32,558 nucleotides of DNA, from contig JAFGND010000085.1 of the NCBI GenBank assembly GCA_016927185.1, positions 1 to 32,558 on the forward strand, in the 5' to 3' direction. Origin of the DNA: Candidatus Coatesbacteria bacterium (GTDB lineage Bacteria > JAFGND01). The number at the start of each line of letters is the position of its first letter. Positions within the stretch are counted from its first letter, which is position 1. The notes under the pieces were generated by a model. It saw nothing but the letters and a program-made list of their open reading frames with translations, was not told the origin of the DNA and made no database searches. This document shows positions 331-32,558 of the stretch, piece after piece. The translations under genes were made by a program, and so were the position numbers.

Positions 331-1317
331 AGAGGAAGATGATTGGTTAGTTGAATATCCAGTTTCTTGTACAGGATTAAATGCAAAAGCATATAAAGCG
401 TAATTATCTCCTTTTACTGAACAAAAAACATTTCCATCCGATAGTCTATAGTAATTAAGGTACAAATTATAAGCATTTGGAAAATTAGGGTTAGGTGATA
501 ACACAGCTGCATTTTTCCCATCAGGAGAAAATCTAAGTTCACCTTTATAAACCAATTCTGAATAGCTCTTGAGACAGACTCCATCTGACATTCTCCAGTA
601 TCTTGTTATATCAGCACATGATAAAGCATAATACCCATCAGGAGCTAAATAGATATCAATACTACCTACAGGAGATTGATTGGTTAAAGTCCTGATGCAC
701 GTTCCATCTGATATTCTCCAAAACTTTACTGTTTTATCATAACTTCCAGATAACATATATTCATCATTCTGCGAAAAAATAGCTTGAATAACATCACCTG
801 TATGTCCATTAAATGATCTTATCACTACACTATCAGGAATACTCCAGTAATCTATACAATTTGTATCTCCATAGCAAATAGCCTTACTTCCATCATAATT
901 CCCATCAGATCCATATAGTGGGAATCCTGTTCTGATTTTGTTTAAACATACACCATCTAAAAGTCTGTATCTATGGATTTTCCGTGTTCTAATTCCTATA
1001 ATGGCGTATTTGTCATCTGTGGTAAAACTTATGGATTTTATTATTTCATCTTCCTTTATTGTCCATAAACAATATCCATCATACAATCGCCAGTATTTTA
1101 AATTAAAATCTAAATCTGCAGATAATAGATAATCTCCATTAAAACTAATTGCTAATGCTGTTATGCCATCAGTATGACCTCTTAATTCCTTTACTTTATT
1201 GCCACTGGGAACTTGCCAGTATTTTAACAGCTTATCATTACCACCGGTCATTATATAATAAGTATTTTCAGCAGATAATGAAAGGTAAAGAAAAAGTATT
1301 ATTGATAAATATCTCAT
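118..1317 (-). CDS. Secreted WD40 beta-propeller protein with T9SS-type C-terminal sorting domain
   Basis: Signal peptide MRYLSIILFLYLSLSA; WD repeats (GHTDGITALAISFNGDYLLSADLDFNLKYW, GHTGDVIQAIFS...LSGSYDKTVKFW); C-terminus SPNPFSTRL...IYSLTGKLI...GVYVVK...KRVVKIR. Confidence 0.85.
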   Translation of the reverse strand: MRYLSIILFLYLSLSAENTYYIMTGGNDKLLKYWQVPSGNKVKELRGHTDGITALAISFNGDYLLSADLDFNLKYWRLYDGYCLWTIKEDEIIKSISFTTDDKYAIIGIRTRKIHRYRLLDGVCLNKIRTGFPLYGSDGNYDGSKAICYGDTNCIDYWSIPDSVVIRSFNGHTGDVIQAIFSQNDEYMLSGSYDKTVKFWRISDGTCIRTLTNQSPVGSIDIYLAPDGYYALSCADITRYWRMSDGVCLKSYSELVYKGELRFSPDGKNAAVLSPNPNFPNAYNLYLNYYRLSDGNVFCSVKGDNYALYAFAFNPVQETGYSTNQSSSSLPAHSFSISPNPFSTRLSVSLPSSGAIYSLTGKLIMKLPKGKHSIDASKWREGVYVVKSGMECKRVVKIR

Positions 1318-1521
1318 CCTTCACTCACCTTCTAAACTATTATTAACATTGATGATTTTTTATATTTATTGTCAAGCTCGTAATTGTATTTTGCAGTATG
1401 ACAGCATAATCTCGGCTTTCTGCCTTGTTTTTTGAAATGCAGGCAAAAATGTGCGAAAATTTTTTCTGGAATATTATCATGTTTTTTTTATATATATTGC
1501 AGAAAGGTCAAGGAGGTCGAG

Positions 1522-2349
1522 ATGACAAGATACATGGTAATTTTACTGACAGTTTTTTTAAGCATTCAACTATTTGCAGCAACTAAAAGCTATCCAGTTA
1601 CATTCTACAATCCAAGAACTGGCTGCAATCAAACACAATACTTTTCCTTTTCCATAACAGTTGTTTCCGATAATTATGGAACCAAAAGCGAGTCAAGCCG
1701 TTATGGAAAACCGTTTGTATATGCTTCCCCGAATGAGAAATACAGCATTACAATATATAATCCTCTTCCAATAAGAGTTGCATGTAATCTCACTATTGAT
1801 GGGTTAAGCTCAATAACTGGAAGTCCTGTAAATGTTTCAGGTGGAAGCAAATGGGTAATACAGCCTAATAGCAGTATAACTATTTCTGGCTGGCAGGTTT
1901 CCAATGACAATGCCAGAAGATTTTATTTTACATCAAAGGCAAATTCCTATGCAAAATGGCGTTCAAATGCATGGGGCAGGGATTTGTCAGTTAACTGTGG
2001 AGTTATTGGTGCTGCTTTCTTCTGGAGTCAGGCAGAGCTGAATGAATATTACAGAAGCATTTACAGACCGGAACCAATTGTATATGATAACGAGTCTCCA
2101 AAATGCGGTGCATCAAGACCATGCCCTGATTATAAAAGAAGAGACAAGTCCTGTGAATCAGCAGCAAAACAATATAATGCTGGGACAGGTATGGGCGAAA
2201 GATACGGCAACAGCGTAACAAGAATATACTTCAATTATGACAGGGGAATGTACAGAGCAACTGACGCAGTAGTAGTATATTACGATTTCGGAAGTCCGGA
2301 ATATTCATATCCCAATGCTTTTTCAAATGGATATGCTCCTGAATATTAG
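1522..2349 (+). CDS. Conserved hypothetical exported protein
   Basis: AGGAGG RBS before ATG 1522; signal peptide (MTRYMVILLTVFLSIQLFA); motifs YSITIYN...IDGL...ISGWQ...FYFT...SYA...GVIGAAFF...GTGMGE resemble a widespread uncharacterised bacterial family (recognised from memory). Confidence 0.75.
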   Translation: MTRYMVILLTVFLSIQLFAATKSYPVTFYNPRTGCNQTQYFSFSITVVSDNYGTKSESSRYGKPFVYASPNEKYSITIYNPLPIRVACNLTIDGLSSITGSPVNVSGGSKWVIQPNSSITISGWQVSNDNARRFYFTSKANSYAKWRSNAWGRDLSVNCGVIGAAFFWSQAELNEYYRSIYRPEPIVYDNESPKCGASRPCPDYKRRDKSCESAAKQYNAGTGMGERYGNSVTRIYFNYDRGMYRATDAVVVYYDFGSPEYSYPNAFSNGYAPEY

Positions 2350-2374
2350 AATCTCCATTTTGCCTTTTATATAG

Positions 2375-2407
2375 AAAAAAGCCCCTTGGAGAAATTCAAG
2401 GGGTTTT
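2375..2407 (+). terminator. Rho-independent terminator
   Basis: AAAAAA-GCCCCTTGGA-GAAA-TTCAAGGGGT-TTT, about 30 nt after the stop at 2349. Confidence 0.75.
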
Positions 2408-2463
2408 CATATTTGAAGATATATTTTCAGATCCCATAAAATCCTTTCCAGAATTAAAAAGTC

Positions 2464-2491
2464 TTGACAAAATCATTGAAAGCATTAATAT
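2464..2491 (+). promoter_or_regulatory. Putative sigma70 promoter
   Basis: TTGACA (2464-2469), 16 nt spacer, TAATAT; about 55 nt upstream of the start. Confidence 0.5.
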
Positions 2492-2518
2492 TTAAATCAG
2501 GTAAAAAGGACGGTGGAA

Positions 2519-3790
2519 ATGAAATATCCATTTTTGATTTTGGGACTTATTTTTATAACTGGTTCTATATATGCACTTCCTGGTGACATTATCTGGAAAT
2601 TCAAGACAGGAGAAGGAATATATTCTTCCCCATATGCTGAAAATAATGTTGTCTATTTCGGAAGTTGCGACAAGAATATCTATGCTCTTGATGCTAATGA
2701 TGGAAGCCTGAGATGGAGCCTGAAAACAGGTGATGAAGTTTATTCGTCTCCAAGAATTGCTAATAATATATTGTATATAGGAAGCAAGGATGGTTATTTA
2801 TATGAGGTGAATGTTGCAGATGGCAGTTTGAATTACCTGCATTCAGTAGGAAGCATTGGATACTCCTCTCCATGCATTTCAAATGGAATGATCTATATCG
2901 GGAGCGAGGATAATAATTTATATGCAATAAATATAAGTGACAAGAAAATCAAATGGAAATTCAAGACAGATGATTATATTCGTTCTACACCATGCGAATT
3001 TGAAGGGACAGTATTTTTTGGAGGCTGGGATAGTTATATATATGCGGTGAATGCTGCAGATGGTTCATTGAAATGGAAATATAAGACAAAATACTCTATT
3101 ATATCATCACCTGCAGTCTTTCAGAACAAGGTTCATATTGGAAGTGATGATGGTTTCCTGTATAGCCTGAATGCTGATGACGGGACATTAAACTGGAAAT
3201 TTGAGGCAAACTGGTATTTCAATTCGTCTCCCCGTATAGCTAATGACCTTGTTTATGCAGGAAGCAATGATAGTTATTTATATGCGATATTTGCAGACAA
3301 TGGTAATCTCAAGTGGAAATACCTGACTGGCAGCTGGGTTTTCTCTTCACCATCTGTTTCTGATGGAGTTGTATATGTCGGCAGCTGGGATTTTAATCTA
3401 TATGCACTTGAAGCATTAAATGGAGATTTCTTATGGAAATTTCCTACTGAAAACCGTCTGGAATCCTCTCCTTTCATATATAATAATATTGTATTTATAG
3501 GAGGAATTGACGGATATTTATATGCCGTTGAGACATATGGTTTTACAGGATTTAAGGAAAAGGAATTTTCTGAAAGTATACCTGCAAGAAAAATCACTGT
3601 ATCACCCAATCCCTTCAGGAACAGGCTTGATGTTTTCTCACCTTCAGAAGGAAGTGTTTATTCAATCTCAGGTCAACTTATGCTAAGAATAGCGAAAGGA
3701 TTTAACAGGATTGATACAAGCCATTGGGATGCAGGAGTTTATATCATTAAAACAAATGATGAGAAAAAGAAGATTGTCAGGATAAAATAA
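2519..3790 (+). CDS. Secreted PQQ-binding-like (BamB-type) 8-bladed beta-propeller with T9SS-type CTD
   Basis: Signal peptide; eight ~40-aa repeats W[KS]xKT...SSP...VYxGSxD..LYA..A.DG.L.W; C-terminus SPNPFRNRL...VYSISGQL...GVYIIK...KKIVRIK. Alternative GTG start at 2513. Confidence 0.88.
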   Translation: MKYPFLILGLIFITGSIYALPGDIIWKFKTGEGIYSSPYAENNVVYFGSCDKNIYALDANDGSLRWSLKTGDEVYSSPRIANNILYIGSKDGYLYEVNVADGSLNYLHSVGSIGYSSPCISNGMIYIGSEDNNLYAINISDKKIKWKFKTDDYIRSTPCEFEGTVFFGGWDSYIYAVNAADGSLKWKYKTKYSIISSPAVFQNKVHIGSDDGFLYSLNADDGTLNWKFEANWYFNSSPRIANDLVYAGSNDSYLYAIFADNGNLKWKYLTGSWVFSSPSVSDGVVYVGSWDFNLYALEALNGDFLWKFPTENRLESSPFIYNNIVFIGGIDGYLYAVETYGFTGFKEKEFSESIPARKITVSPNPFRNRLDVFSPSEGSVYSISGQLMLRIAKGFNRIDTSHWDAGVYIIKTNDEKKKIVRIK

Positions 3791-3879
3791 TGCCCCATTT
3801 GAGGTATCGCTATAAAATCCTGTAAATAATAAGATTATAGCATCGTTTTCAGGATATCTATTCTAAATGGATATTTTAC

Positions 3880-3909
3880 TTGACAGACCTTTGAAAAAAG
3901 TATTATATT
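3880..3909 (+). promoter_or_regulatory. Putative sigma70 promoter
   Basis: TTGACA (3880-3885), 18 nt spacer, TATATT; AAGGAG RBS before ATG 3930. Confidence 0.55.
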
Positions 3910-3929
3910 GAAATGACAAGGAGAATAAT

Positions 3930-5195
3930 ATGAGAATTCTAAATGTCTTGTTCATTTTGATTACAGTTTCAGTTCTTTCTTCGGAACCTGGAGACCTGCT
4001 CTGGAAGTACATGACTGGCAACAAGATCTATTCCTCACCATGGTCAGATGGTGACAACATCTCTTTCGGAAGCCATGATTATTACATTTATACACTGAAA
4101 AAGGATGGCAGTCTCAAATGGAAATATCTGACCCAGAATGAAGTTTATTCATCTCCAAGAATAAAGAATGAAACTGTTTATGAAGGGTCAGAGGATCATT
4201 TCATATATGCAGTCAATATCAATACTGGTTCATTGAAATGGAGCTACCAGACTGTTTCTACAGTAAGTTCTTCTCCCTGTATTCATAATGGAGCAGTTTA
4301 CATTGGAAGCGATGACACCCATCTGTATTCAATAAATGAGAATAATGGAGTTTTGAAATGGAGATACAAGGCAGACAACTGCATAGGTTCAACTCCCTTG
4401 ATAGTCAACGAAAAGATTTATTTCGGTGATTACAGTGGTTATATATATGCAATCAATGAAGATGAAGGAGATCTTGTCTGGAGATACTCTACTGGAAGCA
4501 GTATATATTCTTCTGCATGCTATCTTGATAATACAATATATATAGGTAACACTGACTTTTTCGTCTATGCAATAGATATTTCAAGTGGAAGCCTGAGGTG
4601 GAAATTCAAGACAGGTGCTGAAACCAATTCTACTCCCTGTGCATATAAAGACAAGGTTTTCATAGGCAGCTATGACAAGTATATGTATGCATTCAATGCA
4701 TCTGATGGATCAGTCAACTGGAGATATCCTGCCCAGGACAAGGTTCATTCCTCACCATTTTACAAAGATGATGTTGTCTATTTCGGAAGCTATGATAATT
4801 ACCTGTATGCAGTTAATGCATCCGATGGATCTTTAAAATGGAAGTATTTGGCTGGCGGGACATTATATTCATCACCATTCGTATTCGATAATATCGTATA
4901 TATTGGAGGGCTGGACAATTATCTCTATGCTGTTGAAACATACAAGTCTATGGGATTCAAAAGCATGACAAGAAAGCGTGCATTGCCATCTAACAGTATC
5001 AAATCCTATCCTAATCCTTTCACGAATACATTATTTGTTGAATTGCAACAAGATGGAGCAATTTATGCTTTGAGCGGACAGCTTGTCAGGAAGATACGGA
5101 AAGGCAATTCCAGAATCAATACAAATAACTGGATAGCAGGCATTTACATCATTAAAAGCGGAACTGAAGCAAGAAAGATGGTAAAAACCTGGTAA
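3930..5195 (+). CDS. Secreted PQQ-binding-like beta-propeller with T9SS-type CTD (paralog of 2519-3790)
   Basis: Signal peptide; eight SSP/STP repeats; YAVETY junction; C-terminus YPNPFTNTL...IYALSGQLV...GIYIIK...RKMVKTW. Confidence 0.88.
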   Translation: MRILNVLFILITVSVLSSEPGDLLWKYMTGNKIYSSPWSDGDNISFGSHDYYIYTLKKDGSLKWKYLTQNEVYSSPRIKNETVYEGSEDHFIYAVNINTGSLKWSYQTVSTVSSSPCIHNGAVYIGSDDTHLYSINENNGVLKWRYKADNCIGSTPLIVNEKIYFGDYSGYIYAINEDEGDLVWRYSTGSSIYSSACYLDNTIYIGNTDFFVYAIDISSGSLRWKFKTGAETNSTPCAYKDKVFIGSYDKYMYAFNASDGSVNWRYPAQDKVHSSPFYKDDVVYFGSYDNYLYAVNASDGSLKWKYLAGGTLYSSPFVFDNIVYIGGLDNYLYAVETYKSMGFKSMTRKRALPSNSIKSYPNPFTNTLFVELQQDGAIYALSGQLVRKIRKGNSRINTNNWIAGIYIIKSGTEARKMVKTW

Positions 5196-5266
5196 AGGTA
5201 AATCCTGAATCTGTTTGACAAAATCCCTGCTCTTTTTTGTTCAAGATAACAGGAAAAGGAGGTTTC

Positions 5267-6448
5267 ATGAGTAAACTGTTATTAACATTGATTTTAGTTG
5301 GTTCCATAACTCTTTGTTATGCAACGAAATTCGCACTCTCCGGGAGTCATGACAAGACAGTCAAGTACTGGAATTTGTCTAATGGTATCTGCATAAAAGC
5401 AATCACGGAAATAGAAGATATCTATGAAGTTGCAATAAGCACCGATGGGAAATTTGCACTTACATGTTCATCTGACAAGGATGCGAATTATTATTCACTG
5501 CCTGATCTTGCACTTATTAGAAAACTTTCAGGACATATATCAGGAATATACGGGATTTGCTTCTCTAATGACGGCACGCATGCTGCAACAGGAAGTCAGG
5601 ACCAGAAAGCGAAATACTGGAATCTCGAAGATGGAAACTGCATATATACTCTTGATCATCCAAGCACGGTGAGTGCAGTAGATATAAATAATAATGGGAA
5701 ATACTTATTGACTGGCTGCTGGGACAGGCAATTAAGATTGTTTGATTTGCAGGATGGAACTCTCCTGAGAACTTTCACAGGACATACTTCGCATATAACT
5801 GAAGTGAGATTCAGCTCAAATAGCAAGTATATACTTTCTGCATGTCAGGATTATACAATGAGATACTGGGATGCTGAAACAGGGCAGTGTCTTACAGTCA
5901 TTCAGGATACTTCACAGGTATATTCAGCAAAGCTTTCTCCAAACGGGAATAATATTCTGTCAGGTAATCAATGGGGAATGGTAAGATACTGGCAGACAGA
6001 CGGTACAAGGATTATGACATTCTCAAGCACTCATAATGGGGCAGTAAGAGGAGTAGACATTTTCATAGATGGATTGTATGGTCTGTCTGGCGGGGATGAT
6101 GGTTATATCAAGTATTTTGATATTACAACAGGCAATCTGCTTCTTGAAATAAAAGCCAATAATATTGCAGTAAGAAGTGTTGCTTTCAATCCGGTTGAAG
6201 GCACGGGATTTGATACAAAAACCTCAACTTCTTGTATCCCATACAATTATTTCTCTGTTACTCCCAATCCCTTCAATACTCACCTAACTCTTTCCCTTCC
6301 TGAAGAGGCTTCCATTTATACGATTACCGGAAGGTTAGTGAAAAAGCTGTCAAAGGGTAATTATGAAATAGATACAAAAACATGGAAATCAGGCATATAT
6401 TTATTAAAAACATCAACAGAAATCAGGAAAATAATAAAACTTGATTGA
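5267..6448 (+). CDS. Secreted WD40 beta-propeller protein with T9SS-type CTD
   Basis: AAGGAGG RBS before ATG 5267; signal peptide; WD repeats (GHISGIYGICFS...TGSQDQKAKYW, GHTSHITEVRFS...SACQDYTMRYWD); C-terminus TPNPFNTHL...IYTITGRLV...GIYLLK...RKIIKLD. Confidence 0.88.
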   Translation: MSKLLLTLILVGSITLCYATKFALSGSHDKTVKYWNLSNGICIKAITEIEDIYEVAISTDGKFALTCSSDKDANYYSLPDLALIRKLSGHISGIYGICFSNDGTHAATGSQDQKAKYWNLEDGNCIYTLDHPSTVSAVDINNNGKYLLTGCWDRQLRLFDLQDGTLLRTFTGHTSHITEVRFSSNSKYILSACQDYTMRYWDAETGQCLTVIQDTSQVYSAKLSPNGNNILSGNQWGMVRYWQTDGTRIMTFSSTHNGAVRGVDIFIDGLYGLSGGDDGYIKYFDITTGNLLLEIKANNIAVRSVAFNPVEGTGFDTKTSTSCIPYNYFSVTPNPFNTHLTLSLPEEASIYTITGRLVKKLSKGNYEIDTKTWKSGIYLLKTSTEIRKIIKLD

Positions 6449-9077: not shown

Positions 9078-10223
9078 ATGGGTATATTTGATAGTTTCAA
9101 GAGATCCTTGAAGGGATATGTTCCCTTGAAGAATGCTTTCACTCCTTTCAAGGCAGGTGGAATAGAGGCAAAAAACAGGTTTTTTCGCTCAGCTACCTGG
9201 CTTGGTCTTGCAGCTGAAAATGGTGAAGTAACTCAAGAATTAACAAAGAGATATAGCGACCTGGTTAGGGGTGATGTTGGCTTCATATGGACAGGACTTG
9301 TATCAGTATCCCCTGAAGGAGTCAACCTTCCAAGAATGCTGCAACTCCATTCGAAGCAACACATTGACTCTCTGGGAAGACTTGCAAGATCCATTACAAG
9401 GGCTGGTGGCAAGATAGGAATACAGTTAGCTCATGGCGGAGCAATGTCTAAGAGGGAATTCAATGGAAGAAAGCCTGTTTTAGCTCCTTCAGAAATAAGG
9501 GATCCGAGAACAAACGAGATAAAAGCTAATGAAATTTCAATACCGGAGATAATGAGGATAATTTCTGATTTCACTCATGCTGCAGGTGCTGCCAAAGCGA
9601 TGGGATTCAATGCAATACAACTTCACCTTGCACATGGTTTCCTGTTCAATCAATTTCTTTCTCCAAGATTTAACAAGAGATCGGATCAATATGGCGGGCA
9701 AAGAGATGGAAGAGCATTCATAATAAAACAGACACTGGAATATATAAGAAATGCTATTGGAAACGATTTTCCTATATGGGTAAAGATGAACTGTTCAGAT
9801 TTCGTTGCAAACGGACAGACCGAGGATGATGCTCTTTCTCTTGCATCTCATTTGATGGGATGGGGAGTGAATGGAATTGAGGTTTCTGGAGGAACTCCTG
9901 ATTCAGGCAAACTGGGACCATGCAGGGAAGTTTTCAAAACCATTGATGAAGCATATTTCCTTTCACTTGCCTTGAAAATAAAAAAGGTTTCCAGGTTACC
10001 TGTCATACTAGTTGGTGGAATTCGCTCTACAGGGATTATAGAGGATGTCTTGATTAAGGGAATTGATGGTATATCATTATCTAGACCGTTGATATGTGAA
10101 CCCTTACTTGTGAAGAGATTTTCTGAAGGAGATTTATCGCCATCCATATGCCTTTCATGTAATGAATGTTTCAGATACAGTTATGAAAGCGGAGCTGCTT
10201 GTGCACAATTTGTTGAAGAATGA
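9078..10223 (+). CDS. NADH:flavin oxidoreductase (Old Yellow Enzyme family)
   Basis: KNRFFRSAT, IQLAHGG, GFNAIQLHLAHGFLFNQFLSP..NKRSDQYGG, VGGIRS, SLSRPLICEP; C-terminal CLSCNEC...C. Confidence 0.9.
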   Translation: MGIFDSFKRSLKGYVPLKNAFTPFKAGGIEAKNRFFRSATWLGLAAENGEVTQELTKRYSDLVRGDVGFIWTGLVSVSPEGVNLPRMLQLHSKQHIDSLGRLARSITRAGGKIGIQLAHGGAMSKREFNGRKPVLAPSEIRDPRTNEIKANEISIPEIMRIISDFTHAAGAAKAMGFNAIQLHLAHGFLFNQFLSPRFNKRSDQYGGQRDGRAFIIKQTLEYIRNAIGNDFPIWVKMNCSDFVANGQTEDDALSLASHLMGWGVNGIEVSGGTPDSGKLGPCREVFKTIDEAYFLSLALKIKKVSRLPVILVGGIRSTGIIEDVLIKGIDGISLSRPLICEPLLVKRFSEGDLSPSICLSCNECFRYSYESGAACAQFVEE

Positions 10224-10227
10224 TAAC

Positions 10228-11352
10228 ATGGACGTGTGTTGCCCATGGGAGAAAGAAGCCAGGGCTTATACCATAGAGAATATATACTGGTCTTTTATTT
10301 CTGAACTGGTAAAAGCAATGGTTCTTCTTGTATTCTATTTTTCTGCTTATTCAATGAATTTTGTTGAATATATTTCACAGCTTTTCAATGGAAACATATA
10401 TCTTGTTTTCTTCTTCTATTTTCTCATAACTTATTTAGGTGAAAGGATTTTAGACTTTTATTTTAATATGAAACTGAGTTACCTGATTGAACATAAATAT
10501 GGTTTTTCTGTAGAAACAATGGGTGCCTGGCTGAAGGATCAGGCAAAAGGATTGGGAGTAGGTTTCATAATCGGATTGATAGTAATTGCATTCCTGTTCA
10601 AGAGTTTTGATTTGTTTGGTAACTGGTGGTGGTTTCCTGCCTCAATGGGAATGATAGTATTTGCTGTAATACTTGCCAATTTATTCCCGATTGTCTTGAT
10701 TCCCTTGTTTTTCAAACTGACACCAATTGAGGATGAGGAATTGAAGGAATTGCTTACAAACCTGAACAGGAAAGCCGGTATTAAAGTGAAAGGCTTTCAC
10801 AGTATAAATCTTTCTAGCAAGACAATAAAACAGAATGCAATGCTGGCAGGATTATTCAACACAAAACGTGTTATCATAAGTGATACACTTCTTAATGAGT
10901 CATCAAGAAATGAAATCGAGGCGGTTATAGCACATGAACTGGGACATCATAAAGCAAAACACATGATAAAGAAGATATTTTTTTCATCCCTGCATATCTT
11001 GCTGCTTTTTGTTTTAATTGATTATTTCATGAAGTTTTTTATTCCAGAATTCCCGAATGATTTCAAGAAAACACTTGCAGGATTTCCATTGTTCATTGTA
11101 ATATCAATGATACTGGGAGTTATATTGAAACCTGTTTCTCTTTATATATCAAGGTTTTATGAAAGCAAGGCTGATGAACTCGCTCTTGAACTATGTTCAG
11201 ATCCTTCATCATTGTCACTCGTTCTCTATAAACTGGCAGAAAAGAACAAGGAATGGCTTTCTCCTCCATCATGGATTGTCTGGTTTATGTATGGTCATCC
11301 ACCAATGAAAGATAGACTGAAGAACTGCAGGAATAAGGAGAGAAATGCCTAG
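10228..11352 (+). CDS. M48 family (Ste24/CAAX-type) membrane zinc metalloprotease
   Basis: HELGHH zinc motif, NAMLAGL...KRVIISDTLL, SRFYESKAD, HPP..DRL; multiple TM helices. Confidence 0.9.
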   Translation: MDVCCPWEKEARAYTIENIYWSFISELVKAMVLLVFYFSAYSMNFVEYISQLFNGNIYLVFFFYFLITYLGERILDFYFNMKLSYLIEHKYGFSVETMGAWLKDQAKGLGVGFIIGLIVIAFLFKSFDLFGNWWWFPASMGMIVFAVILANLFPIVLIPLFFKLTPIEDEELKELLTNLNRKAGIKVKGFHSINLSSKTIKQNAMLAGLFNTKRVIISDTLLNESSRNEIEAVIAHELGHHKAKHMIKKIFFSSLHILLLFVLIDYFMKFFIPEFPNDFKKTLAGFPLFIVISMILGVILKPVSLYISRFYESKADELALELCSDPSSLSLVLYKLAEKNKEWLSPPSWIVWFMYGHPPMKDRLKNCRNKERNA

Positions 11353-13021
11353 CCTTGTTTTCACTGACAGTTCTGGACAAGCAGTAAATCAGTCGCTTGA
11401 TGCTTTCCCATTCAAAATCGGAAGGGTTAGTGACAATAATATAGTGCTTCTTTCTGCAATTGTATCAAGATATCATGCCCAGATAGTAAAAGTTCAGGGG
11501 AAATATTACATAGAGGATCTTGAAAGCGTAAACGGTGTTTTCCTCAATGGCATAAGGGTTGCCAAAGTGGCTCTCAAGTACGGGGATCAGATAAAAATAG
11601 GCAACACTGTTTTCACATTCATGGAAACTGAGATTGCTGATGGATTTTCGACAACAACTGATGGTGATGAGGCTACTAACCAGGAAATCAAGGAATTCGA
11701 TTTGCATATAAGAAGACTTGAGGATATTTTCTTTCAGGTTTCACCATCACTATCCAGTCCCAAGATAAACATTGAAGCAAGCCAGCTTTTCCGTAAGTTA
11801 AACAGGAATTTCAAGAAACTGATAAAGGAAGCTGAAATAAGGCATACTTTATATGATGTTTCAAGGCTTATAGCAAGCGTATATGATATGCAGGTTCTGC
11901 TTAACCTGGTAATGGATCTGGCATTAAAGGCAATAAAAGCTGAGCGCGGATTTGTCTTGATGAAAAATGAAAAGGGAGATCTGGAAGTAAAAGTTGCAAG
12001 GCTGATGGAAGATGACATCAAGGAATTTGAGGGAGTTGGCATATCACAATCAATTGCAGGCAAGGTAGTAGAGAAAGGTGAACCGATACTCACTTTTGAT
12101 GCAGCAACTGATCCCAGATTTTCCAATCAGGAGTCAATAATATCTCACAATATCAAATCTGTGCTTTGTGTTCCATTGAAAGGAAGAGATGGTGAAACAT
12201 TTGGAGTTATCTATGCAGATAACAAGGGAGGACTTGAAAACAAGAAAGTTTTCAGGCAGGAGGATCTAGAGTTTTTTGTTGCTTTCGCTAATCAAAGTGC
12301 AATTGCCATAGAGAACGCCAGTTTGTATGAGAAAGTCAGAAAAGAAGAGCAGATGAGACTTACCCTTGCAAGATACCTTTCTCCTCAAATAGTAGAGCAG
12401 GTTCTTCATGCTCCAGGTGAAATGCAGCTTGGTGGTGTGAAAAAGCATGTAACTGTCTTGTTTGCAGATATAAGAAACTTCACCCCAACTACTGAGCAAG
12501 TTGATTCAAATCTACTCGTAACTCTTCTGAATGAGTATTTCACTATAATGACCCAGACAGTCTTTGAATTCGAGGGAACTCTTGACAAGTATCTGGGTGA
12601 TGGATTGATGGCAGTTTTCGGTGCTCCATTCAGTCATCCTGACGATGAGCTGCGAGCCATAAATTCAGCAATAAAAATGCAGTCTCTTGTAGAGAATCTG
12701 AAGAAAGGTTGGAAATCAAGAGGATTCTCAGATTTATTCAGCAGTGATTTCTATATTGGCATTGGTATATCAACAGGTGAAGTGATTTCAGGAAATATAG
12801 GGAGCTATAGTAGAATGGATTATACTGTAATAGGAGATACTGTCAATCTTTCAAGCAGGCTATCCCACATTGCATGCAAGGGACAGATACTGATAAGTGA
12901 GGATACTTACAAGTTTGTCAAAAACAGGATAGAAGTAAATGAACTGCCAATGCAGAAAATCAAAGGTAAGGAACACCAGATCAAGATTTATGAAGTAGTC
13001 TGTACAACAATCAGGAAATGA
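11345..13021 (+). CDS. FHA-GAF-class III adenylate cyclase
   Basis: FHA (IGRVSDN..VSRYHA..DLESVNG), GAF (SVLCVPL...GVIYAD...FANQSAIAIENA) and cyclase domains (VLFADIRNFT, DKYLGDGLMAVFGAP, DYTVIGDTVNLSSRL). The Lys/Asp specificity residues indicate ATP as substrate. Confidence 0.92.
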   Translation: MPSLVFTDSSGQAVNQSLDAFPFKIGRVSDNNIVLLSAIVSRYHAQIVKVQGKYYIEDLESVNGVFLNGIRVAKVALKYGDQIKIGNTVFTFMETEIADGFSTTTDGDEATNQEIKEFDLHIRRLEDIFFQVSPSLSSPKINIEASQLFRKLNRNFKKLIKEAEIRHTLYDVSRLIASVYDMQVLLNLVMDLALKAIKAERGFVLMKNEKGDLEVKVARLMEDDIKEFEGVGISQSIAGKVVEKGEPILTFDAATDPRFSNQESIISHNIKSVLCVPLKGRDGETFGVIYADNKGGLENKKVFRQEDLEFFVAFANQSAIAIENASLYEKVRKEEQMRLTLARYLSPQIVEQVLHAPGEMQLGGVKKHVTVLFADIRNFTPTTEQVDSNLLVTLLNEYFTIMTQTVFEFEGTLDKYLGDGLMAVFGAPFSHPDDELRAINSAIKMQSLVENLKKGWKSRGFSDLFSSDFYIGIGISTGEVISGNIGSYSRMDYTVIGDTVNLSSRLSHIACKGQILISEDTYKFVKNRIEVNELPMQKIKGKEHQIKIYEVVCTTIRK

Positions 13022-15668: not shown

Positions 15669-16337
15669 TTGACAGAAACTCTTCGTTTATTTTTACCAGG
15701 GGAAGAAGCTGTTTTAGAAAGCCTTGAATGGAAGAGAAAACCTGATAAAATCTATCTTGTCAAGGAATCTGACATTAGTAAACTGAGATCTTTCAGCAAT
15801 TTTCAGCTAGTTTCAGAGAGAATGCTGAGAAAACTTACTGAGCTCAAGACTTCCTCTTCAATGGCAGCAGAATTCAGCTGGAAAAGCACCAATATAAGAG
15901 ATTTTCCAGAAACAGGGAAATTCGTGCTGTTTGACAGAATTCAGGACCCCGGGAATGTAGGTTCAATGATAAGGACTTGCTTTGCTGCAGGTATATCAGG
16001 AATATTCTTGAGTCCAGAATGTGCAAAGCTTGCCAATCCCAAGACATTCAGAGCGTCAAGAGGAGCCTATTTTTTCATGAACATCCATGAAAAAACGAAT
16101 ATAGAAACAGCAAGAGATTTCATAACCAGGCATAATCTGAAAGTCTTTATTACACGCAAGAACAAAGGTAAGCTGTTCAGCCTTCCTGATAATTCCCTTT
16201 TGATAATGGGTAATGAGGCAAAAGGGGTAAGCAGGGAATACAATTCACTGGAGCATGACAATATATCTATTCCAATGAACGATGATTGCGATTCATTGAA
16301 TGTTTCAGTGTCATTGGGGATAATACTTTATGCTTGA
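15669..16337 (+). CDS. TrmH/SpoU family RNA methyltransferase
   Basis: IQDPGNVGSMIRT, RASRGA, IMGNEAKGVS, IPM...DSLNVSVS. Confidence 0.9.
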   Translation: MTETLRLFLPGEEAVLESLEWKRKPDKIYLVKESDISKLRSFSNFQLVSERMLRKLTELKTSSSMAAEFSWKSTNIRDFPETGKFVLFDRIQDPGNVGSMIRTCFAAGISGIFLSPECAKLANPKTFRASRGAYFFMNIHEKTNIETARDFITRHNLKVFITRKNKGKLFSLPDNSLLIMGNEAKGVSREYNSLEHDNISIPMNDDCDSLNVSVSLGIILYA

Positions 16338-17245
16338 TGGAAGAAAGGAATATGGCATCATCTAAACCATCGTGGCTCAAGAAGAAACATTCAGCTCCTG
16401 GAAATTACATTTTCACAAGGCATTTGCTGAAGGATCTGAATATCAACACAGTTTGTGATGAAGCCCATTGCCCCAACAGAAATGATTGCTTTGGAGACAA
16501 GAATGCAACATTTCTTCTGCTTGGAAAGTATTGTACAAGGAATTGCCTTTTTTGCAGTATAGAACATGATATGTCTAAATTGCATATTGATGAGCTTGAA
16601 CCTCAGCGGATTGCTCTTGCAGTCCAAAGAATGCAACTTAAGTATGTCGTACTGACATCTGTCACAAGAGACGATCTTGAAGATGGTGGTGCAGGCATGT
16701 TCATCAGGACTGTGGAGGAAATCCGTAAACTGATGAATGACATCAAAATAGAGGTGCTGATACCTGATTTTAACGGAAATCTGAAACCTCTTCAAGATAT
16801 TCTTGACATTAAACCCGCAATACTTAACCATAATATTGAAATGATAAAGGAGCTTTACCCGATTTACAGACCATATTCAAGCTATTTTCGTTCACTTGAG
16901 CTTCTTAGTAATGCGAATTCCATCTCTGAAATCCCTGTCAAGACTGGCTTCATGGTCGGTCTGGGAGAAAGCAAGGAACAGATAGAATCTCTGCTTGAAG
17001 ATATCCATGAATGCGGTGTTGATATATTGACTATAGGGCAGTACATAGCCCCAACATCTTTTCATGCAAGACCAGTCAGATATTATCATCCAGCAGAATT
17101 TGATGAATTGAAGCAAATAGCAAATGATTCAGGAATTAGGCATGTATTGTCGGGACCATTCGTAAGAAGTTCTTTTAAAGCTTATGATACTTATATGAAT
17201 TTAAACAAATCTGATATGGAAATGTTAGAAAAGGAGAAACAATGA
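16337..17245 (+). CDS. lipA: Lipoyl synthase
   Basis: KPSWLK, CDEAHCPNRNDC, CTRNCLFC, TSVTRDDLEDGGA, NHNIE, TIGQY, GPFVRSSF. Start 16337 or 16352. Confidence 0.95.
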   Translation: MEERNMASSKPSWLKKKHSAPGNYIFTRHLLKDLNINTVCDEAHCPNRNDCFGDKNATFLLLGKYCTRNCLFCSIEHDMSKLHIDELEPQRIALAVQRMQLKYVVLTSVTRDDLEDGGAGMFIRTVEEIRKLMNDIKIEVLIPDFNGNLKPLQDILDIKPAILNHNIEMIKELYPIYRPYSSYFRSLELLSNANSISEIPVKTGFMVGLGESKEQIESLLEDIHECGVDILTIGQYIAPTSFHARPVRYYHPAEFDELKQIANDSGIRHVLSGPFVRSSFKAYDTYMNLNKSDMEMLEKEKQ

Positions 17246-17792: not shown

Positions 17793-18761
17793 TTGCAAAA
17801 AGTTGCTGTAAAAAAAATATATAACGACTTGAAAGAAAAGGTTCATCTTGCATTGATAGAAGGGGAAGATGGACTTGACAGGGAAGTTACAGAAACACAG
17901 GTTTACAGACCTGGACTTGCTCTGGCTGGATTCACGGCTTATTTTCCACATAAATGCATACAGATTCTCGGTGGCACTGAAATAACATATCTTGAATCAT
18001 TGTCTTCCAAGAAACGAAATGAGACATTGAGACATCTTCTTTCTTTCGATACTCCTGCATATATAATTGCAAGGGATTTGCAGGTTCCCCAGCAGTTTTT
18101 GAGATTAGCAAAAGAGAGAAAAATTCCTGTAATGAGAACCATATTACCAACCAATACTCTTATATTGAATCTTAATAATTATCTCTGGAAAGTCCTGTCA
18201 GCTCAAGTTACAGTTCATGGTACTCTTGTTGATGTATATGGAATTGGAATGCTTTTCACTGGAGATAGCGGAGTAGGCAAGAGTGAGTGTGCTCTTGATT
18301 TAGTGGAGAGGGGACACAGACTTGTTGCAGATGATGTTGTTAACATAATTAAAAGTCCTGAGGGAATATTGATCGGGAAAGGTAGCGAATTACTTGGTTT
18401 TCACATGGAAGTGCGAGGAGTAGGTGTAATAAATGTTGAATCACTCTTTGGTGTAAGAGCTATCAGAATGCATAAAAGAGTGGAAGTGGAAGTATGTCTG
18501 AGAAGGTGGGAAGATATAATAAAAGTAGACAGGACAGGGCTGGAACTCCAGACATCCAGATATCTTGATGTTGAAATACCTCAGATAATCATACCTATTC
18601 AGCCGGGAAAAAACATTACAGTTATAGTTGAAGTTATAGCAATGAATTTCATGCTAAAAGTATATGGACATGATCCAGCTCAGGAATTTGCCCAGAAATT
18701 ATTGAAGTCCATTCAGGAAAAGAAAACAATAGATTTTTATGTTAGAGGAGACCTGGAATAA
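17793..18761 (+). CDS. hprK: HPr(Ser) kinase/phosphorylase
   Basis: RPGLALAGF, HGTLVDVYGIG, GDSGVGKSECALDLVERGHRLVADD, MEVRGVG. Confidence 0.96.
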   Translation: MQKVAVKKIYNDLKEKVHLALIEGEDGLDREVTETQVYRPGLALAGFTAYFPHKCIQILGGTEITYLESLSSKKRNETLRHLLSFDTPAYIIARDLQVPQQFLRLAKERKIPVMRTILPTNTLILNLNNYLWKVLSAQVTVHGTLVDVYGIGMLFTGDSGVGKSECALDLVERGHRLVADDVVNIIKSPEGILIGKGSELLGFHMEVRGVGVINVESLFGVRAIRMHKRVEVEVCLRRWEDIIKVDRTGLELQTSRYLDVEIPQIIIPIQPGKNITVIVEVIAMNFMLKVYGHDPAQEFAQKLLKSIQEKKTIDFYVRGDLE

Positions 18762-29007: not shown

Positions 29008-30075
29008 ATGTTATCATTTTTTTCAACCAGAAAAGGTATAATTGTTGCAGGTATATTGATTGGTTTTTTTGCTTCGTTTCTTCAGAAAATGGGAAATCCT
29101 CCCAATATGGGAATATGCGTTGCATGCATGGAACGGGATATAGCGGGAGCCCTGGGATTACATAGAGCAGCAGTAGTACAGTATATGAGACCAGAAATAA
29201 TAGGTTTTGTATTAGGTGCATTCATTGCTGCATTGATATTCAAGGAATTCAAATCAAGAACAGGTTCAGCACCTATAATAAGATTCATGCTTGGTTTTTT
29301 TGCAATGATAGGCTCATTGGTATTTCTGGGATGCCCATGGAGAATGCTCCTGAGGCTGGCAGGAGGAGATGGCAATGCAATACTGGGGGCACTTGGTCTC
29401 ATAGCAGGTGTCTGGATAGGAGTTTTATTCATCAAGAAAGGATTCAGTCTGGGAAGAAGCCAGAAAACGTATTCAATAGTTGGATTGATAATGCCTGTAA
29501 TAATGATTTCCTTTCTATTATTACTTCTTTTCAAGCCACAGCTGCCATCTGGTGCATTATTTTTCAGTACTGAAGGACCAGGTTCAAAATATGCTAGCAT
29601 TGCACTTTCTCTTGGTATTGCAATTATAATCGGTTTTATTGCTCAGAGAACCAGATTCTGTACAATGGGTTCAATAAGAGATGTAATACTGATAAAGGAT
29701 TTTCATCTTATATCTGGAATAATAGCAATGTTGATAAGTGCATTTATTGCTAATCTTGTTTTCAATCAATTCAAACCCGGATTTGCTGAGCAACCGATTG
29801 CACATACTAACCATATATGGAATTTTGGTGGAATGCTTCTTGCTGGATTGGCATTTGCTCTTGCAGGAGGATGTCCAGGAAGACAGCTATTCATGTCAGG
29901 AGAGGGAAATGGTGATGCTTCCATTTTCGTTCTTGGAATGATCGGAGGAGCTGCATTTTCCCATAATTTTGCAATAGCCAGCACTCCAAAAGGTGTTGAT
30001 TTATGGGGACCGGGAGCAGTTATAATCGGTATAATTTTCTGTCTTGTCATTGGATTTACAATGAGAGAAAAATAA
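29008..30075 (+). CDS. yedE: YedE/YeeE family putative selenium/sulfur transporter
   Basis: GNPPNMGICVACMERDIAGALGLH...VQYMRPEI, LGCPWR, QRTRFCTMG, GGCPGRQ; multiple TM helices. Confidence 0.92.
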   Translation: MLSFFSTRKGIIVAGILIGFFASFLQKMGNPPNMGICVACMERDIAGALGLHRAAVVQYMRPEIIGFVLGAFIAALIFKEFKSRTGSAPIIRFMLGFFAMIGSLVFLGCPWRMLLRLAGGDGNAILGALGLIAGVWIGVLFIKKGFSLGRSQKTYSIVGLIMPVIMISFLLLLLFKPQLPSGALFFSTEGPGSKYASIALSLGIAIIIGFIAQRTRFCTMGSIRDVILIKDFHLISGIIAMLISAFIANLVFNQFKPGFAEQPIAHTNHIWNFGGMLLAGLAFALAGGCPGRQLFMSGEGNGDASIFVLGMIGGAAFSHNFAIASTPKGVDLWGPGAVIIGIIFCLVIGFTMREK

Positions 30076-30084
30076 GGAGTTATT

Positions 30085-30300
30085 ATGAATGAAGAATTGG
30101 ATTTAAGGGGATTATCATGTCCTGAACCTATAGTAAGGACTCTTAATAAGCTGAACCAGATGAAAACTGGAAAACTCAAGATATTAGTTGATACTGGAAC
30201 TTCGAGAGATAATGTAACAAGGATTGCCCAGAAAGAAGGCTGGACTGTAAATTCAGAAGAAAGCAATGATGAATGCATCTTGACAGTAACGAAGGAATAA
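30085..30300 (+). CDS. TusA/SirA (YedF-like) sulfur carrier protein
   Basis: LDLRGLSCPEPIV motif; 71 aa; AAGGAG RBS. Confidence 0.92.
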   Translation: MNEELDLRGLSCPEPIVRTLNKLNQMKTGKLKILVDTGTSRDNVTRIAQKEGWTVNSEESNDECILTVTKE

Positions 30301-30305
30301 CCAGA

Positions 30306-31451
30306 ATGATTTACGTCGACAATGCAGCAACAAGCTTTCCAAAACCAGGGGAAGTTGGCAGGGCAATGCTTGATTATCTTGAAAATAAGAGTGCAAATCC
30401 AGGTCGTTCAGCACATCGTTTATCAATAGAAGCTGGCAGGGCTATTTACAGGACAAGAGAAAACCTTGCCAGGCTTCTCGATCTGAAGGATCCATTGAGA
30501 ATAGTGTTCTGTCTTAATGCAACAGAAGCATTGAATCTTGTTATCAGGGGCTTTCTTGAACCGGGAATGCATGTTATAACAAGCTCGATGGAACATAATT
30601 CAGTAATGCGTCCCCTGAGAAATCTTGAAAAAAAGGGTGTTGAAATTACTGTTATCAGAGATAAAGAAGATGAGCTCTTCATAAATGATCTTGAGAAAAG
30701 CATAAAGAAGAATACAGCTCTTATACTACTCAATCATGCTTCAAATGTAAATGGAAGAATTTTCCCAATAAAATCAGCAGGTAAGATTGCAGAAAAGAAT
30801 GGTATCCTGTTTATGATAGACGCTGCTCAATCTGCAGGTTGCATACCAATAGACATGTATGAAGATAACATCAATATTCTGGCTTTCACTGGTCACAAAA
30901 GCCTTTATGGACCGCAAGGAACTGGTGGACTTGCAATAAGAGATGATGTTGATTTCACAAGGATAAAAACACTGAAAACTGGAGGAACAGGTAGTAAATC
31001 AGAAAAAGAGGAACAACCAACATTTCTTCCAGACATGTTTGAAAGCGGGACTCCTAACGGAGTTGGTTTATCAGGACTTAATGCAGGCATTGAGTTTATT
31101 ACAGCCAGGAAAATAAATGAAATACATGATTTCGAAATTAGCCTTGCACATGAGCTCAAGAGTTATTTAAAGAAATCAGCTGGTATAACCATCTATGAGC
31201 CTTTGTCAGAAGACAGTACTGCTACAGTTTCTTTTAATATAGACAGGCTGCCTTCATCTAAAGTTGCGATGATACTTGATGAGAAATACGAAATAATGAC
31301 CAGAGCAGGATTACATTGTGCTCCTTCCGCTCATAAATCCATTGGCTCTTTCCCGTCAGGTACTGTACGGATAAGTTTCGGAATATTTAATACTTATGAG
31401 CATGTTGAAAAACTTATAGATGCTATTATTGAGATAAGCAGGGATTTCTGA
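30306..31451 (+). CDS. Class V aminotransferase, cysteine desulfurase / selenocysteine lyase family
   Basis: IYVDNAATSFPKP, NATEALN, EHNSV, DAAQSAG, FTGHKSLYGPQGTG, ESGTPN, RAGLHCAP. Confidence 0.92.
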   Translation: MIYVDNAATSFPKPGEVGRAMLDYLENKSANPGRSAHRLSIEAGRAIYRTRENLARLLDLKDPLRIVFCLNATEALNLVIRGFLEPGMHVITSSMEHNSVMRPLRNLEKKGVEITVIRDKEDELFINDLEKSIKKNTALILLNHASNVNGRIFPIKSAGKIAEKNGILFMIDAAQSAGCIPIDMYEDNINILAFTGHKSLYGPQGTGGLAIRDDVDFTRIKTLKTGGTGSKSEKEEQPTFLPDMFESGTPNGVGLSGLNAGIEFITARKINEIHDFEISLAHELKSYLKKSAGITIYEPLSEDSTATVSFNIDRLPSSKVAMILDEKYEIMTRAGLHCAPSAHKSIGSFPSGTVRISFGIFNTYEHVEKLIDAIIEISRDF

Positions 31452-31681
31452 TGAAAGAAGCAAGATCTGTAATACTTTTTTACTCATCAAGTGCTGCCTT
31501 GAAAATGGAAAGTCTTGCAAAGAGCGAAAATCTTGTCGTGAAGCTTATCCCTATTCCAAGAGACTTGAGCTCAGATTGTGGAATATGTCTGCTTGTATTA
31601 AATGATGACATGGAAGAGATAAAGACAATCATTGATAATCACAGGATTGAATATGAAGGAATTCATGATTATATGGTATAG
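31451..31681 (+). CDS. DUF3343 family putative Se/S carrier-like protein
   Basis: ILFYSSSAALKME...LIPIPRDLSSDCGICL; start overlaps the desulfurase stop (TGATG). Confidence 0.85.
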   Translation: MKEARSVILFYSSSAALKMESLAKSENLVVKLIPIPRDLSSDCGICLLVLNDDMEEIKTIIDNHRIEYEGIHDYMV

Positions 31682-31788
31682 GTGAATAGAATACTTATCT
31701 GGTTTTTTCTACAATATCATTTCCATATAGCTCAGACTATTAGTTTTAGGCTATATTAAATATCTTAATAATATCTATTAACTATAGT

Positions 31789-31817
31789 TTGTAGAATAAA
31801 ATAATGAACATTAATTT
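31789..31817 (+). promoter_or_regulatory. Possible promoter of the small peptide gene
   Basis: TTGTAG, 17 nt spacer, TAATTT in a very AT-rich spacer. Confidence 0.3.
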
Positions 31818-31854
31818 AATCTATTTGAGAGTAATAGCTAAAATGGAGTAAAAA

Positions 31855-32019
31855 ATGAAATCATACAAAAAACCAGAAATAATTTCTGAGCTGATATTTG
31901 AAAAGACTGCGCTTGATTGCGATGATTATATCTATTATGCAAAAGGCTATGAAGGTTGCAGAGATGAATATATAGGAAGAGGAAAAGTAACAACGGCATG
32001 TGCAGATACTCATAGCTAA
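31855..32019 (+). CDS. 54-aa putative RiPP precursor peptide (not in ORF track)
   Basis: Translated by hand: MKSYKKPEIISELIFEKTALDCDDYIYYAKGYEGCRDEYIGRGKVTTACADTHS. GGAG RBS 6 nt upstream; YxxP leader motif; terminator downstream. Confidence 0.72.
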   Translation: MKSYKKPEIISELIFEKTALDCDDYIYYAKGYEGCRDEYIGRGKVTTACADTHS

Positions 32020-32086: not shown

Positions 32087-32122
32087 AAAAGAGCTTGTGG
32101 AAATCCATGAGCTCTTTTGTTT
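32087..32122. terminator. Probable bidirectional terminator
   Basis: AAAAGAGCTTGTGG-AAAT-CCATGAGCTCTTTT-GTTT between the convergent peptide gene and the minus-strand propeller gene. Confidence 0.75.
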
Positions 32123-32171: not shown

Positions 32172-32558
32172 CTATCTAACCTTTACCACCTTCTTTGTTT
32201 CCATCGAGCTCTTCACTATATAAACTCCCTCTCTCCATTTGCTTGTATCAATAGAATGCTTGCCCTTCTCCAGTTTCATAATCAGCTGACCTGTCAGGGA
32301 ATATATATAAGCAGAAGAAGGAAGGGAAATCGAAAGTCTGTCAGTAAAGGGGTTGGGGGAAATAGAGAAGGATTTAGCTGGAATATAAGAAGCTGATTTG
32401 TTATCCTTGAAGCCAGACTTATATGTCTCTATTGCATAAATATAATAATCATTACTGCCAACATAAACAACTCCATCTGAGATACAAGGAGAGGAGTGAA
32501 CTAAAAAACCTGTCTTATATCTCCATTTAAGAGTCCCATCTGAGAAGTTTAGTGCATA
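32172..32558 (-). CDS. 3' end of a PQQ-like beta-propeller protein with T9SS-type CTD (5' part outside the window)
   Basis: Translated by hand: ...YALNFSDGTLKWRYKTGFLVHSSPCISDGVVYVGSNDYYIYAIETYKSGFKDNKSASYIPAKSFSISPNPFTDRLSISLPSSAYIYSLTGQLIMKLEKGKHSIDTSKWREGVYIVKSSMETKKVVKVR*. Confidence 0.9.
   Translation of the reverse strand, partial: YALNFSDGTLKWRYKTGFLVHSSPCISDGVVYVGSNDYYIYAIETYKSGFKDNKSASYIPAKSFSISPNPFTDRLSISLPSSAYIYSLTGQLIMKLEKGKHSIDTSKWREGVYIVKSSMETKKVVKVR

Follow-up and report, generated by a model that had tools for sequence, protein, structure and literature searches.

Dispersed, uncalled genes for a three-cysteine peptide family in a Candidatus Coatesbacteria genome probably encode RiPP precursors served in trans by a radical-SAM cassette

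Contig JAFGND010000085.1 of a Candidatus Coatesbacteria bacterium (assembly GCA_016927185.1), whose 32,558 nt form the window of this study, carries close to its end an unannotated open reading frame (ORF) for a peptide of 54 amino acids, located at 31855..32019 (+) with the stop codon included. With a probability of roughly two in three, we consider this 54-mer to be a genuine precursor of a ribosomally made peptide with post-translational modifications (RiPP), which belongs to a divergent multi-copy subfamily within a widespread and uncharacterized superfamily and has its maturation cassette in trans. What is new here is a rare precursor subfamily with three Cys and a Tyr- and acid-rich core of ~37 residues, encoded by about ten dispersed and uncalled genes. 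An earlier reading of the window from its letters alone (the sequence-only reading) had already described such a precursor, and its claims are taken up below together with the results that bear on them.

Reading and translating the sequence anew gave coordinates and a peptide identical to those of the sequence-only reading, with Cys at positions 22, 35 and 49 (gaps of 13 and 14), one Tyr in the leader and five beyond residue 20 (that is, in the C-terminal 34 residues), and Ser as the last residue of a C-terminus that reads C-A-D-T-H-S. The ORF starts with ATG, and since an in-frame TAA lies two codons 5′ of it, no alternative start is available. A GGAG Shine-Dalgarno element (31845..31848, +) is found 6 nt 5′ of the ATG, and GGAG or GGAGG equivalents stand 5′ of all paralogues. 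Pfam and NCBIfam scans of the 54-mer returned no family, even at E ≤ 10, and one superfamily peptide scanned alongside it (L014) likewise had no match to any model of the two collections.

The paralogue search proposed by the sequence-only reading was productive. In the source genome (109 contigs, 2.99 Mb, 35.9% GC) 12 matches were found, equal to 11 paralogous loci, ten of them full-length and nine intact, each of the nine with a ribosome-binding site (RBS) and an ATG. The copy on contig C90 (1966-2121) has AAG in place of the family ATG, and the copy at the end of contig C106 (35487-35647) has lost a base in an A run and meets a TAG after 18 codons, which could be an assembly error. Frame +1 is stop-free in all nine intact paralogues, and each of the five other frames has stops in at least seven of the nine. 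Across the 36 paralogue pairs, the proportions of nonsynonymous (pN) and synonymous (pS) differences range over 0.10-0.41 and 0.27-1.07, respectively; dN/dS is 0.08-0.61 in the 18 pairs with computable dS, the other 18 being saturated at silent sites. Judged by these comparisons, the 54-aa ORF is a genuine gene under purifying selection. The paralogue consensus is MKxYxKPxIISExxxEKTALxCxDYxYYxKxYEGCxDEYLGRGKxxxxCAxxxS, in which K2, Y4, P7, S11, E12, E16, L20, C22, Y28, C35, G41, G43, K44 and C49 are invariant among the nine and the C-terminal residue is Ser in eight and Thr in one. A word-based search of a large protein collection recovered just two of the ten full-length copies, both from the source genome.

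The genome set searched contained no other member of the phylum, and among 40 genomes of the same domain a single distant leader match was obtained (in G014). This match sits between a radical S-adenosylmethionine (SAM)/SPASM gene and an S24/S26-like peptidase gene, and for this reason the leader was recast as a degenerate DNA pattern, Y-x-K-P-x-I-x-S-E-x3-E-x3-L-x-C, which was searched in one genome per species. At least 119 matches in at least 114 stretches of the species-representative genomes were recovered, nearly all of them short ORFs (for example ...YEKPKIKTEKVFETAALACGKCQTGPISQLACKTLKKFS), with about nine chance matches estimated under equal base frequencies. The matches listed, to which all counts of loci and of cassette-linked peptides below refer, come mainly from Elusimicrobiota, Acidobacteriota, Armatimonadota and Planctomycetota, with some from Pseudomonadota and one from a member of the Methanobacteriaceae. 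Non-redundant peptides linked to the cassette described below number 83, of which 82 end in Ser and 70 have the last Cys seven residues from the end; F-E is followed by Thr in 66 and by Lys in three, and the first three core residues, TAL in the 54-mer, are AAL, LAL or TAL in 75, none with Ser at position 3. As a measure of motif specificity, a profile built from these 83 peptides of other phyla picks exactly the ten full-length paralogues from 46,096 six-frame ORFs (E 1.6e-9 to 3.6e-4), the next best ORF standing at 0.28.

Of 18 matches at E ≤ 0.001 in a profile search against 1.84 billion representative proteins, 15 are 53-109 aa long, show the window-type pattern and come from rare, mostly short metagenome contigs; the other three (P0003, P0016, P0019) are long proteins whose matches arise from many short repeats, and they were judged spurious. 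In the aligned family of 23 members, the Y and P of YxxP and C49 are invariant throughout. Two DNA sequencing runs from biogas fermenters show many related copies and tandem joints, and since their contigs come from mixed organisms, these reads give only a hint of multiple copies in relatives. An RNA run of the source study gave no such reads, which has no bearing on expression. Some Acidobacteriota members of the wider superfamily (L023, L088, L094, L117, L129) have much longer Gly/Ser-rich cores, in ORFs of 90-197 aa that sometimes stand three in tandem.

The case for a RiPP precursor, as made in the sequence-only reading, is carried mainly by the genes that accompany these short ORFs. Neighboring ORFs of the 115 listed loci were clustered, and a cassette was defined as a PqqD protein, a radical-SAM/SPASM enzyme, a kinase-like protein and a signal peptidase I (SpI)-like peptidase encoded within 4.5 kb on the peptide's strand. 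Of these genes, 92 loci have one or more and 52 have all four, while none occurs within the stretch examined in 23; by component, PqqD is found at 82 loci, the radical-SAM/SPASM enzyme and the peptidase at 78 each, and the kinase-like protein at 68. In Elusimicrobiales (L030, L042) the gene order is kinase-PqqD-peptide-peptidase-rSAM, and in Acidobacteriota and the archaeal locus it is kinase-PqqD-rSAM-peptide-peptidase.

None of the cassette proteins attains the curated cut-off of any NCBIfam model, and their identities were approached through profiles and folds. The PqqD component belongs to PF05402, and the best solved relatives of its profile are lasso-peptide B1 proteins, TbiB1 and TfuB1 among them (5v1u for TbiB1, E 1.7e-18; further entries 9x8z_B and 9x90_B); this supports the earlier claim that the YxxP motif is of the kind read by a RiPP recognition element (RRE). 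The peptidase, of ~120-170 aa, has weak matches to the sigpep_I_arch and SipW models, and its profile matches the signal peptidase SEC11A/C at E 2e-9. The kinase-like protein, of ~270 aa with a GxSGxGKT loop, has sub-threshold matches to HprK_rel_A (E 2.6e-5), HprK_rel_B and ScmC, and the fold matches of its AlphaFold2 model (predicted local distance difference test, pLDDT, 87; predicted template modeling score, pTM, 0.86) are phosphoenolpyruvate carboxykinases, with the HPr kinase/phosphorylase (HprK/P) structure 1kkl at E 6e-4. Phosphoenolpyruvate carboxykinase and HprK/P share one fold, and since the family profile searched against PDB sequences gave only P-loop and phosphoenolpyruvate carboxykinase matches, it took a fold search to bring out the HprK/P likeness.

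A search of the source genome for PqqD/RRE and radical-SAM/SPASM genes, another check proposed by the sequence-only reading, located one such cassette, split over two contigs. Contig C107 carries a PF14907 nucleotidyltransferase (3280-4440), a kinase-like protein (4506-5174), a PqqD (5171-5449; PF05402, 63 bits) and a radical-SAM/SPASM gene (5433-6302) cut by the contig end, and contig C50 carries the C-terminus of a radical-SAM enzyme (2-214), a 66-aa precursor (180-380), an SpI-like peptidase (382-741) and then a secreted Kelch-like protein. Measured against its homologues, the C107 radical-SAM protein stops near position 288, and the C50 fragment matches positions 301-335 of 344; the two contigs therefore very probably abut. 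The C50 precursor (L135) begins MKEKYSKPQII, has seven Cys and many Pro, ends in Thr, and keeps the same spacing from Y to the first Cys as the window family. In a quick maximum-likelihood tree, whose details are unsure owing to long branches, two of the 14 radical-SAM/SPASM proteins of the source genome, those of C107 and of contig C99, fall inside the cassette clade (Shimodaira-Hasegawa-like approximate likelihood ratio test 95). The C99 enzyme lies in a polysaccharide-export locus and is the best genome match to the cassette radical-SAM enzymes, at 39% identity.

Additional components are scattered over the genome. An orphan PqqD on contig C21 (570-872, in the locus L134 at 570-4664), which matches the cassette PqqDs in at least 51 loci, stands between a propeller gene with a type IX secretion system (T9SS) tail and the gene for a 1246-aa adenylate/guanylate cyclase-AAA-TPR protein. 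Further kinase-like paralogues of ~300 aa occur at C38:10078-12638, C54:39548-40459 and C70:103-4891; by eye, two of them lie near J-domain-like proteins, and the one on C70 is 2.7 kb from a peptide paralogue.

With one cassette on C107/C50, maturation in trans, as the sequence-only reading had supposed, is plausible, and the same layout recurs elsewhere. Whole-genome searches of five other genomes with orphan copies found a cassette-type PqqD elsewhere in all five, 190 kb from the peptide on the same contig in one and on a different contig in the others; a backwards control pattern gave no matches in this search, as against 10 forward. Scattered precursors combined with one cassette are thus a recurrent layout. 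Co-folding of leader and RRE, again suggested by the sequence-only reading, scored 0.45 for the C107 PqqD with the 54-mer against 0.21 for the best control (run-to-run contact agreement of 69% or more, partner pLDDT of 44 or more), and since, by the calibration of the method, a result of this kind is wrong more often than it is right when the guess was not likely beforehand, it lends weak support to PqqD-leader binding.

Part of this machinery has been described in two other contexts. The first is that of the linear polyphosphorylated peptides (LPPs; LppA/K/B/S/N/D) of Bacillota, described by Popov et al. (Nat Commun 2026, PMC13381572). Their precursors carry YxxPxVLxHQxIxFETxxS, and a discrete RRE presents the precursor both to an SpI-like peptidase and to an HprK-like kinase, which polyphosphorylates core Ser3. 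Leader cleavage takes place behind T(-1) and requires F(-3), E(-2) and T(-1), and LPP clusters also hold a nucleotidyltransferase (PMC13381572). The second is that of the phosphorylated lasso peptides paeninodin (PadeK) and pseudomycoidin (PsmK, PsmN), in which the C-terminal Ser receives a phosphate on its side chain from an HprK-family kinase and PsmN, an uncharacterized nucleotidyltransferase, adds a hexose to that phosphate (PMC6993621). As presented in the main text of PMC13381572, both the LPPs and the paeninodin-type lasso version are restricted to Bacillota.

The window family resembles the LPPs, as described there, in its YxxPx[V/I] RRE-binding motif (Y4-K-K-P7-E-I9 in the 54-mer), in a leader end like F-E-T (F15-E16-K17), at which the SpI-like peptidase on C50 may act, and in belonging to systems often found near polysaccharide genes. 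The LPP gene set is in part matched on C107/C50 by the peptidase, RRE, kinase-like protein and PF14907 transferase. In contrast to the LPPs, for which the published account includes no primary crosslinking enzyme and uses the terms "radical SAM", "rSAM" and "SPASM" not once in its main text, the cassette includes a radical-SAM/SPASM enzyme. LPPs are phosphorylated on core Ser3, whereas core position 3 of the 54-mer is Leu and its conserved Ser is the last residue; LPP cores as reported are not defined by Cys, the window gene is an orphan copy, and the stretches of C107/C50 that were seen hold no MsbA-type exporter beside the cassette. With the phosphorylated lasso peptides of PMC6993621 the family has in common a [Y/W]xxP leader, a discrete B1/PqqD RRE, an HprK-family kinase and a nucleotidyltransferase, but a radical-SAM/SPASM enzyme and an SpI-like peptidase take the place of the lasso cyclase and the B2 cysteine peptidase.

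Other radical-SAM systems are more remote. SynChlorMet (Scm) and GeoRSP cassettes combine a PqqD-like protein, one or more radical-SAM/SPASM enzymes and an HprK-related protein, and the cassette proteins do match the ScmC, ScmD, ScmE and GeoRSP PqqD and radical-SAM models (TIGR04248-04251, TIGR04302/04303), but weakly and far below the cut-offs, for example 92.6 against 400 for ScmE and 90.9 against 400 for the GeoRSP radical-SAM enzyme. Sactipeptides and ranthipeptides are thioether RiPPs made by radical-SAM/SPASM enzymes; they share a Cys-bearing core, such an enzyme and an RRE with the present family, and the cassette has weak matches to PapB, StsB and AlbA, none at cut-off, whereas neither the kinase nor the SpI-like peptidase nor an invariant Ser at the C-terminus belongs to those classes. 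The PqqA target motif is E-x3-Y and MftA ends in G-V-Y, unlike the 54-mer, which has no E-x3-Y and a different C-terminus, and the cassette radical-SAM enzymes fall below the PqqE and MftC cut-offs. The archaeal radical-SAM system of PMC13692751 is a different one. No description of the radical-SAM-bearing version was found in the literature searched, although the supplement of PMC13381572 (SpI network clusters 2-11, domain co-occurrence) may list radical-SAM-linked peptidases. The sequence-only reading had seen no recognized class in the core; since the family is related to the LPP and phosphorylated-lasso systems, its class is known in part.

By alignment with the LppA leader, which ends in F-E-T, we infer a leader of residues 1-17 (MKSYKKPEIISELIFEK; 31855..31905, +) and a core of residues 18-54 (TALDCDDYIYYAKGYEGCRDEYIGRGKVTTACADTHS; 31906..32016, +). 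The sequence-only reading had placed the leader end near FEKTAL; the region agrees, the putative cut after F15-E16-K17 lying three residues earlier. In the mechanism that we propose, PqqD would bind the leader stretch Y4-K-K-P7-x-I9, the YxxP codons of which lie at 31864..31875 (+). The radical-SAM/SPASM enzyme would modify the core at or through the invariant cysteines (codons 31918-31920, 31957-31959 and 31999-32001, +), for which a thioether crosslink is our guess at the most likely chemistry, and the kinase-like protein would phosphorylate the side chain of the C-terminal Ser54 (codon 32014..32016, +). A sugar would perhaps be added next by way of the PF14907 nucleotidyltransferase, and the SpI-like peptidase would remove the leader after F15-E16-K17. 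On the paeninodin and pseudomycoidin precedent, and with Ser at the end of nearly all paralogues and superfamily peptides, the C-terminal Ser is probably a phosphorylation site and not a crosslink partner. The thioether or aromatic crosslinks suggested by the sequence-only reading stay conjectural. The fuller proposal, in which these peptides form an undescribed RiPP class whose Cys core is crosslinked by the radical-SAM/SPASM enzyme and whose C-terminal Ser receives a phosphate or phospho-sugar from the HprK-fold kinase and nucleotidyltransferase, with one cassette serving about ten dispersed precursors of Tyr/Asp/Glu-rich, three-Cys core, is put forward tentatively, its chances being somewhat short of even.

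Several observations weigh against assigning the 54-mer to this cassette. The junction of C107 and C50 is deduced, with no overlap between the contigs, and the leader of the C50 precursor differs after YSKPQII, which may mean that the cassette does not accept the window family. The assignment of the kinase-like protein stems from its modeled fold and sub-threshold profile matches. Since the leader pattern was written from the window family, the pattern and the 83-peptide profile are circular as regards sequence similarity; they attest to motif specificity and provide no independent homology, and gene neighborhood is the only independent evidence. Apart from C106, where a radical-SAM/SPASM gene (12271..11192), a family 2 glycosyltransferase (GT2) gene overlapping it by 8 nt (11199..10180) and a peptide gene (10110..9949) follow one another on one strand, no cassette gene adjoins the window ORF or the other copies, and the radical-SAM enzyme on C106 falls outside the cassette clade of the tree. 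A metagenome pattern scan for the window-type core yielded four short contigs, all of them orphan copies with no informative neighbors. Lastly, conservation is higher in the long middle stretch of the subfamily (C-x-D-Y-x-Y-Y...Y-E-G-C-x-D-E-Y-L-G-R-G-K) than in the tail, an atypical pattern among RiPP cores and one also compatible with a small protein that functions by itself.

The last points lead to the alternative that survives best, although we regard it as unlikely, in which the peptide is a stand-alone small protein, descended from a precursor and no longer matured, such as a Cys/Tyr-rich metal or redox mini-protein or a regulatory decoy that occupies PqqD. The conserved middle, the lack of adjacent enzymes at all copies but one and the orphan state of copies in other organisms agree with it, as does the synteny between the source genome and a metagenome contig (L136), in both of which the peptide gene, on C106 in the former, is convergent with a cyanophycin synthetase gene. 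However, strong purifying selection has kept, in all copies, the terminal Ser as well as the leader motifs with no role but recognition and cleavage (Y, P, I, S/T-E, F-E-x), AlphaFold2 gave the 54-mer no confident fold (pLDDT 59.5, pTM 0.23), and a cassette of the matching family is present in the genome.

An improbable variant of the precursor interpretation would have the peptides matured by enzymes other than those of C107/C50, mainly the C106 radical-SAM/SPASM and GT2 pair, which would give a crosslinked glycopeptide, or else the C99 radical-SAM enzyme with the C21 PqqD. The compact one-strand arrangement on C106 speaks for the former, as does the best NCBIfam match of the GT2, the mycofactocin glycosyltransferase MftF (95 bits, cut-off 280); the latter draws on the likeness of the C99 and C21 proteins to their cassette counterparts. 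Against both, no PqqD is found near C106 or C99, and against the C106 pair in particular, its radical-SAM enzyme lies outside the cassette clade, the neighborhood is seen at one of 11 copies, and the syntenic L136 shows no radical-SAM or GT2 gene within ~1 kb upstream.

The window itself holds no candidate maturase, in agreement with the sequence-only reading: its sole radical-SAM gene (16286-17245) is generic, is devoid of SPASM and RRE domains, and stands 14.6 kb from the ORF among housekeeping genes, which, with a His-biosynthesis operon among them, make up the rest of the window. A genuine two-domain HPr kinase/phosphorylase (Hpr_kinase_N and Hpr_kinase_C) at 17793-18761 is distinct from the HprK-fold kinase-like proteins of the cassette. 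Directly 5′ of the ORF, on the same strand, is a four-gene selenium/sulfur set (29008-31681) in which a YedE-family protein, putatively a selenium transporter (TIGR04112, 493 bits), is accompanied by TusA, by a cysteine desulfurase (TIGR01977, with SclA scoring below its cut-off) and by a Se/S carrier of PF11823. That the peptide belongs to this operon as a Cys-rich acceptor or carrier is very unlikely: the ORF does follow the Se_S_carrier gene on the same strand after 173 nt with no predicted terminator between, but it has its own RBS, its upstream region is common to the C6 paralogue and not to the operon, and the other ten copies are not near selenium genes.

That upstream region bears on the claim of the sequence-only reading that the gene is a transcription unit of its own, with an RBS, an AT-rich promoter and a terminator. 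The RBS stands, and so does a single terminator-like hairpin with a T run at 32087..32118 (+; shuffle mean 0.5), which separates the peptide gene from a convergent gene (32172-32558) for a beta-propeller protein with a T9SS sorting tail and has a counterpart 3′ of the C100 paralogue. The AT-rich promoter is not borne out by the scan, in which promoter-like hexamers show no excess (six found, shuffle mean 5.5). By blastn, window positions 31764-31989 match C6:762-536 at 78% identity, an alignment that spans 91 nt 5′ of the ATG (~78% conserved), and this conserved stretch (31764..31854, +) is possibly the gene's own promoter. Beta-propeller genes with a T9SS tail adjoin four of eight peptide loci, but this adjacency is hard to weigh because the source genome has at least 150 PF18962 T9SS-tail matches in 3 Mb, many of them PQQ-like beta-propellers and often at contig ends, because homologous propeller DNA is present on more than 50 contigs, and because C16 and C100 are one segmental duplication.

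A lasso-peptide precursor, in spite of the YxxP leader and a genome PqqD whose profile is closest to lasso B1 proteins, has a negligible chance of being correct, since no PF13471 B2 peptidase in the genome exceeds the cut-off (best 17.6 bits against 26), four strong asparagine-synthase (PF00733) homologues lie near neither the cassette nor the peptides, and the superfamily's partner enzyme is of the radical-SAM/SPASM type at 78 of 115 loci.

The LPPs, which are radical-SAM-free and of Bacillota, and the paeninodin-type lasso peptides are the only versions of this pathway studied so far, and the leader described here marks a much larger superfamily of at least 114 loci in at least six phyla. 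In this superfamily the recognition, kinase and peptidase module is coupled to a radical-SAM enzyme, and the product is therefore probably a peptide both crosslinked and phosphorylated. Moreover, the window shows that precursors of this kind can escape gene callers, occur in many copies and be dispersed over a genome, so that cluster-centered genome mining would miss them. With two candidate RREs and about ten natural substrates for a single cassette, the source genome offers a compact test set for how one maturation system handles many cores. If the fuller proposal is true, the mature peptides may work alongside this bacterium's very large complement of surface proteins secreted by the type IX system, or alongside its polysaccharide machinery.

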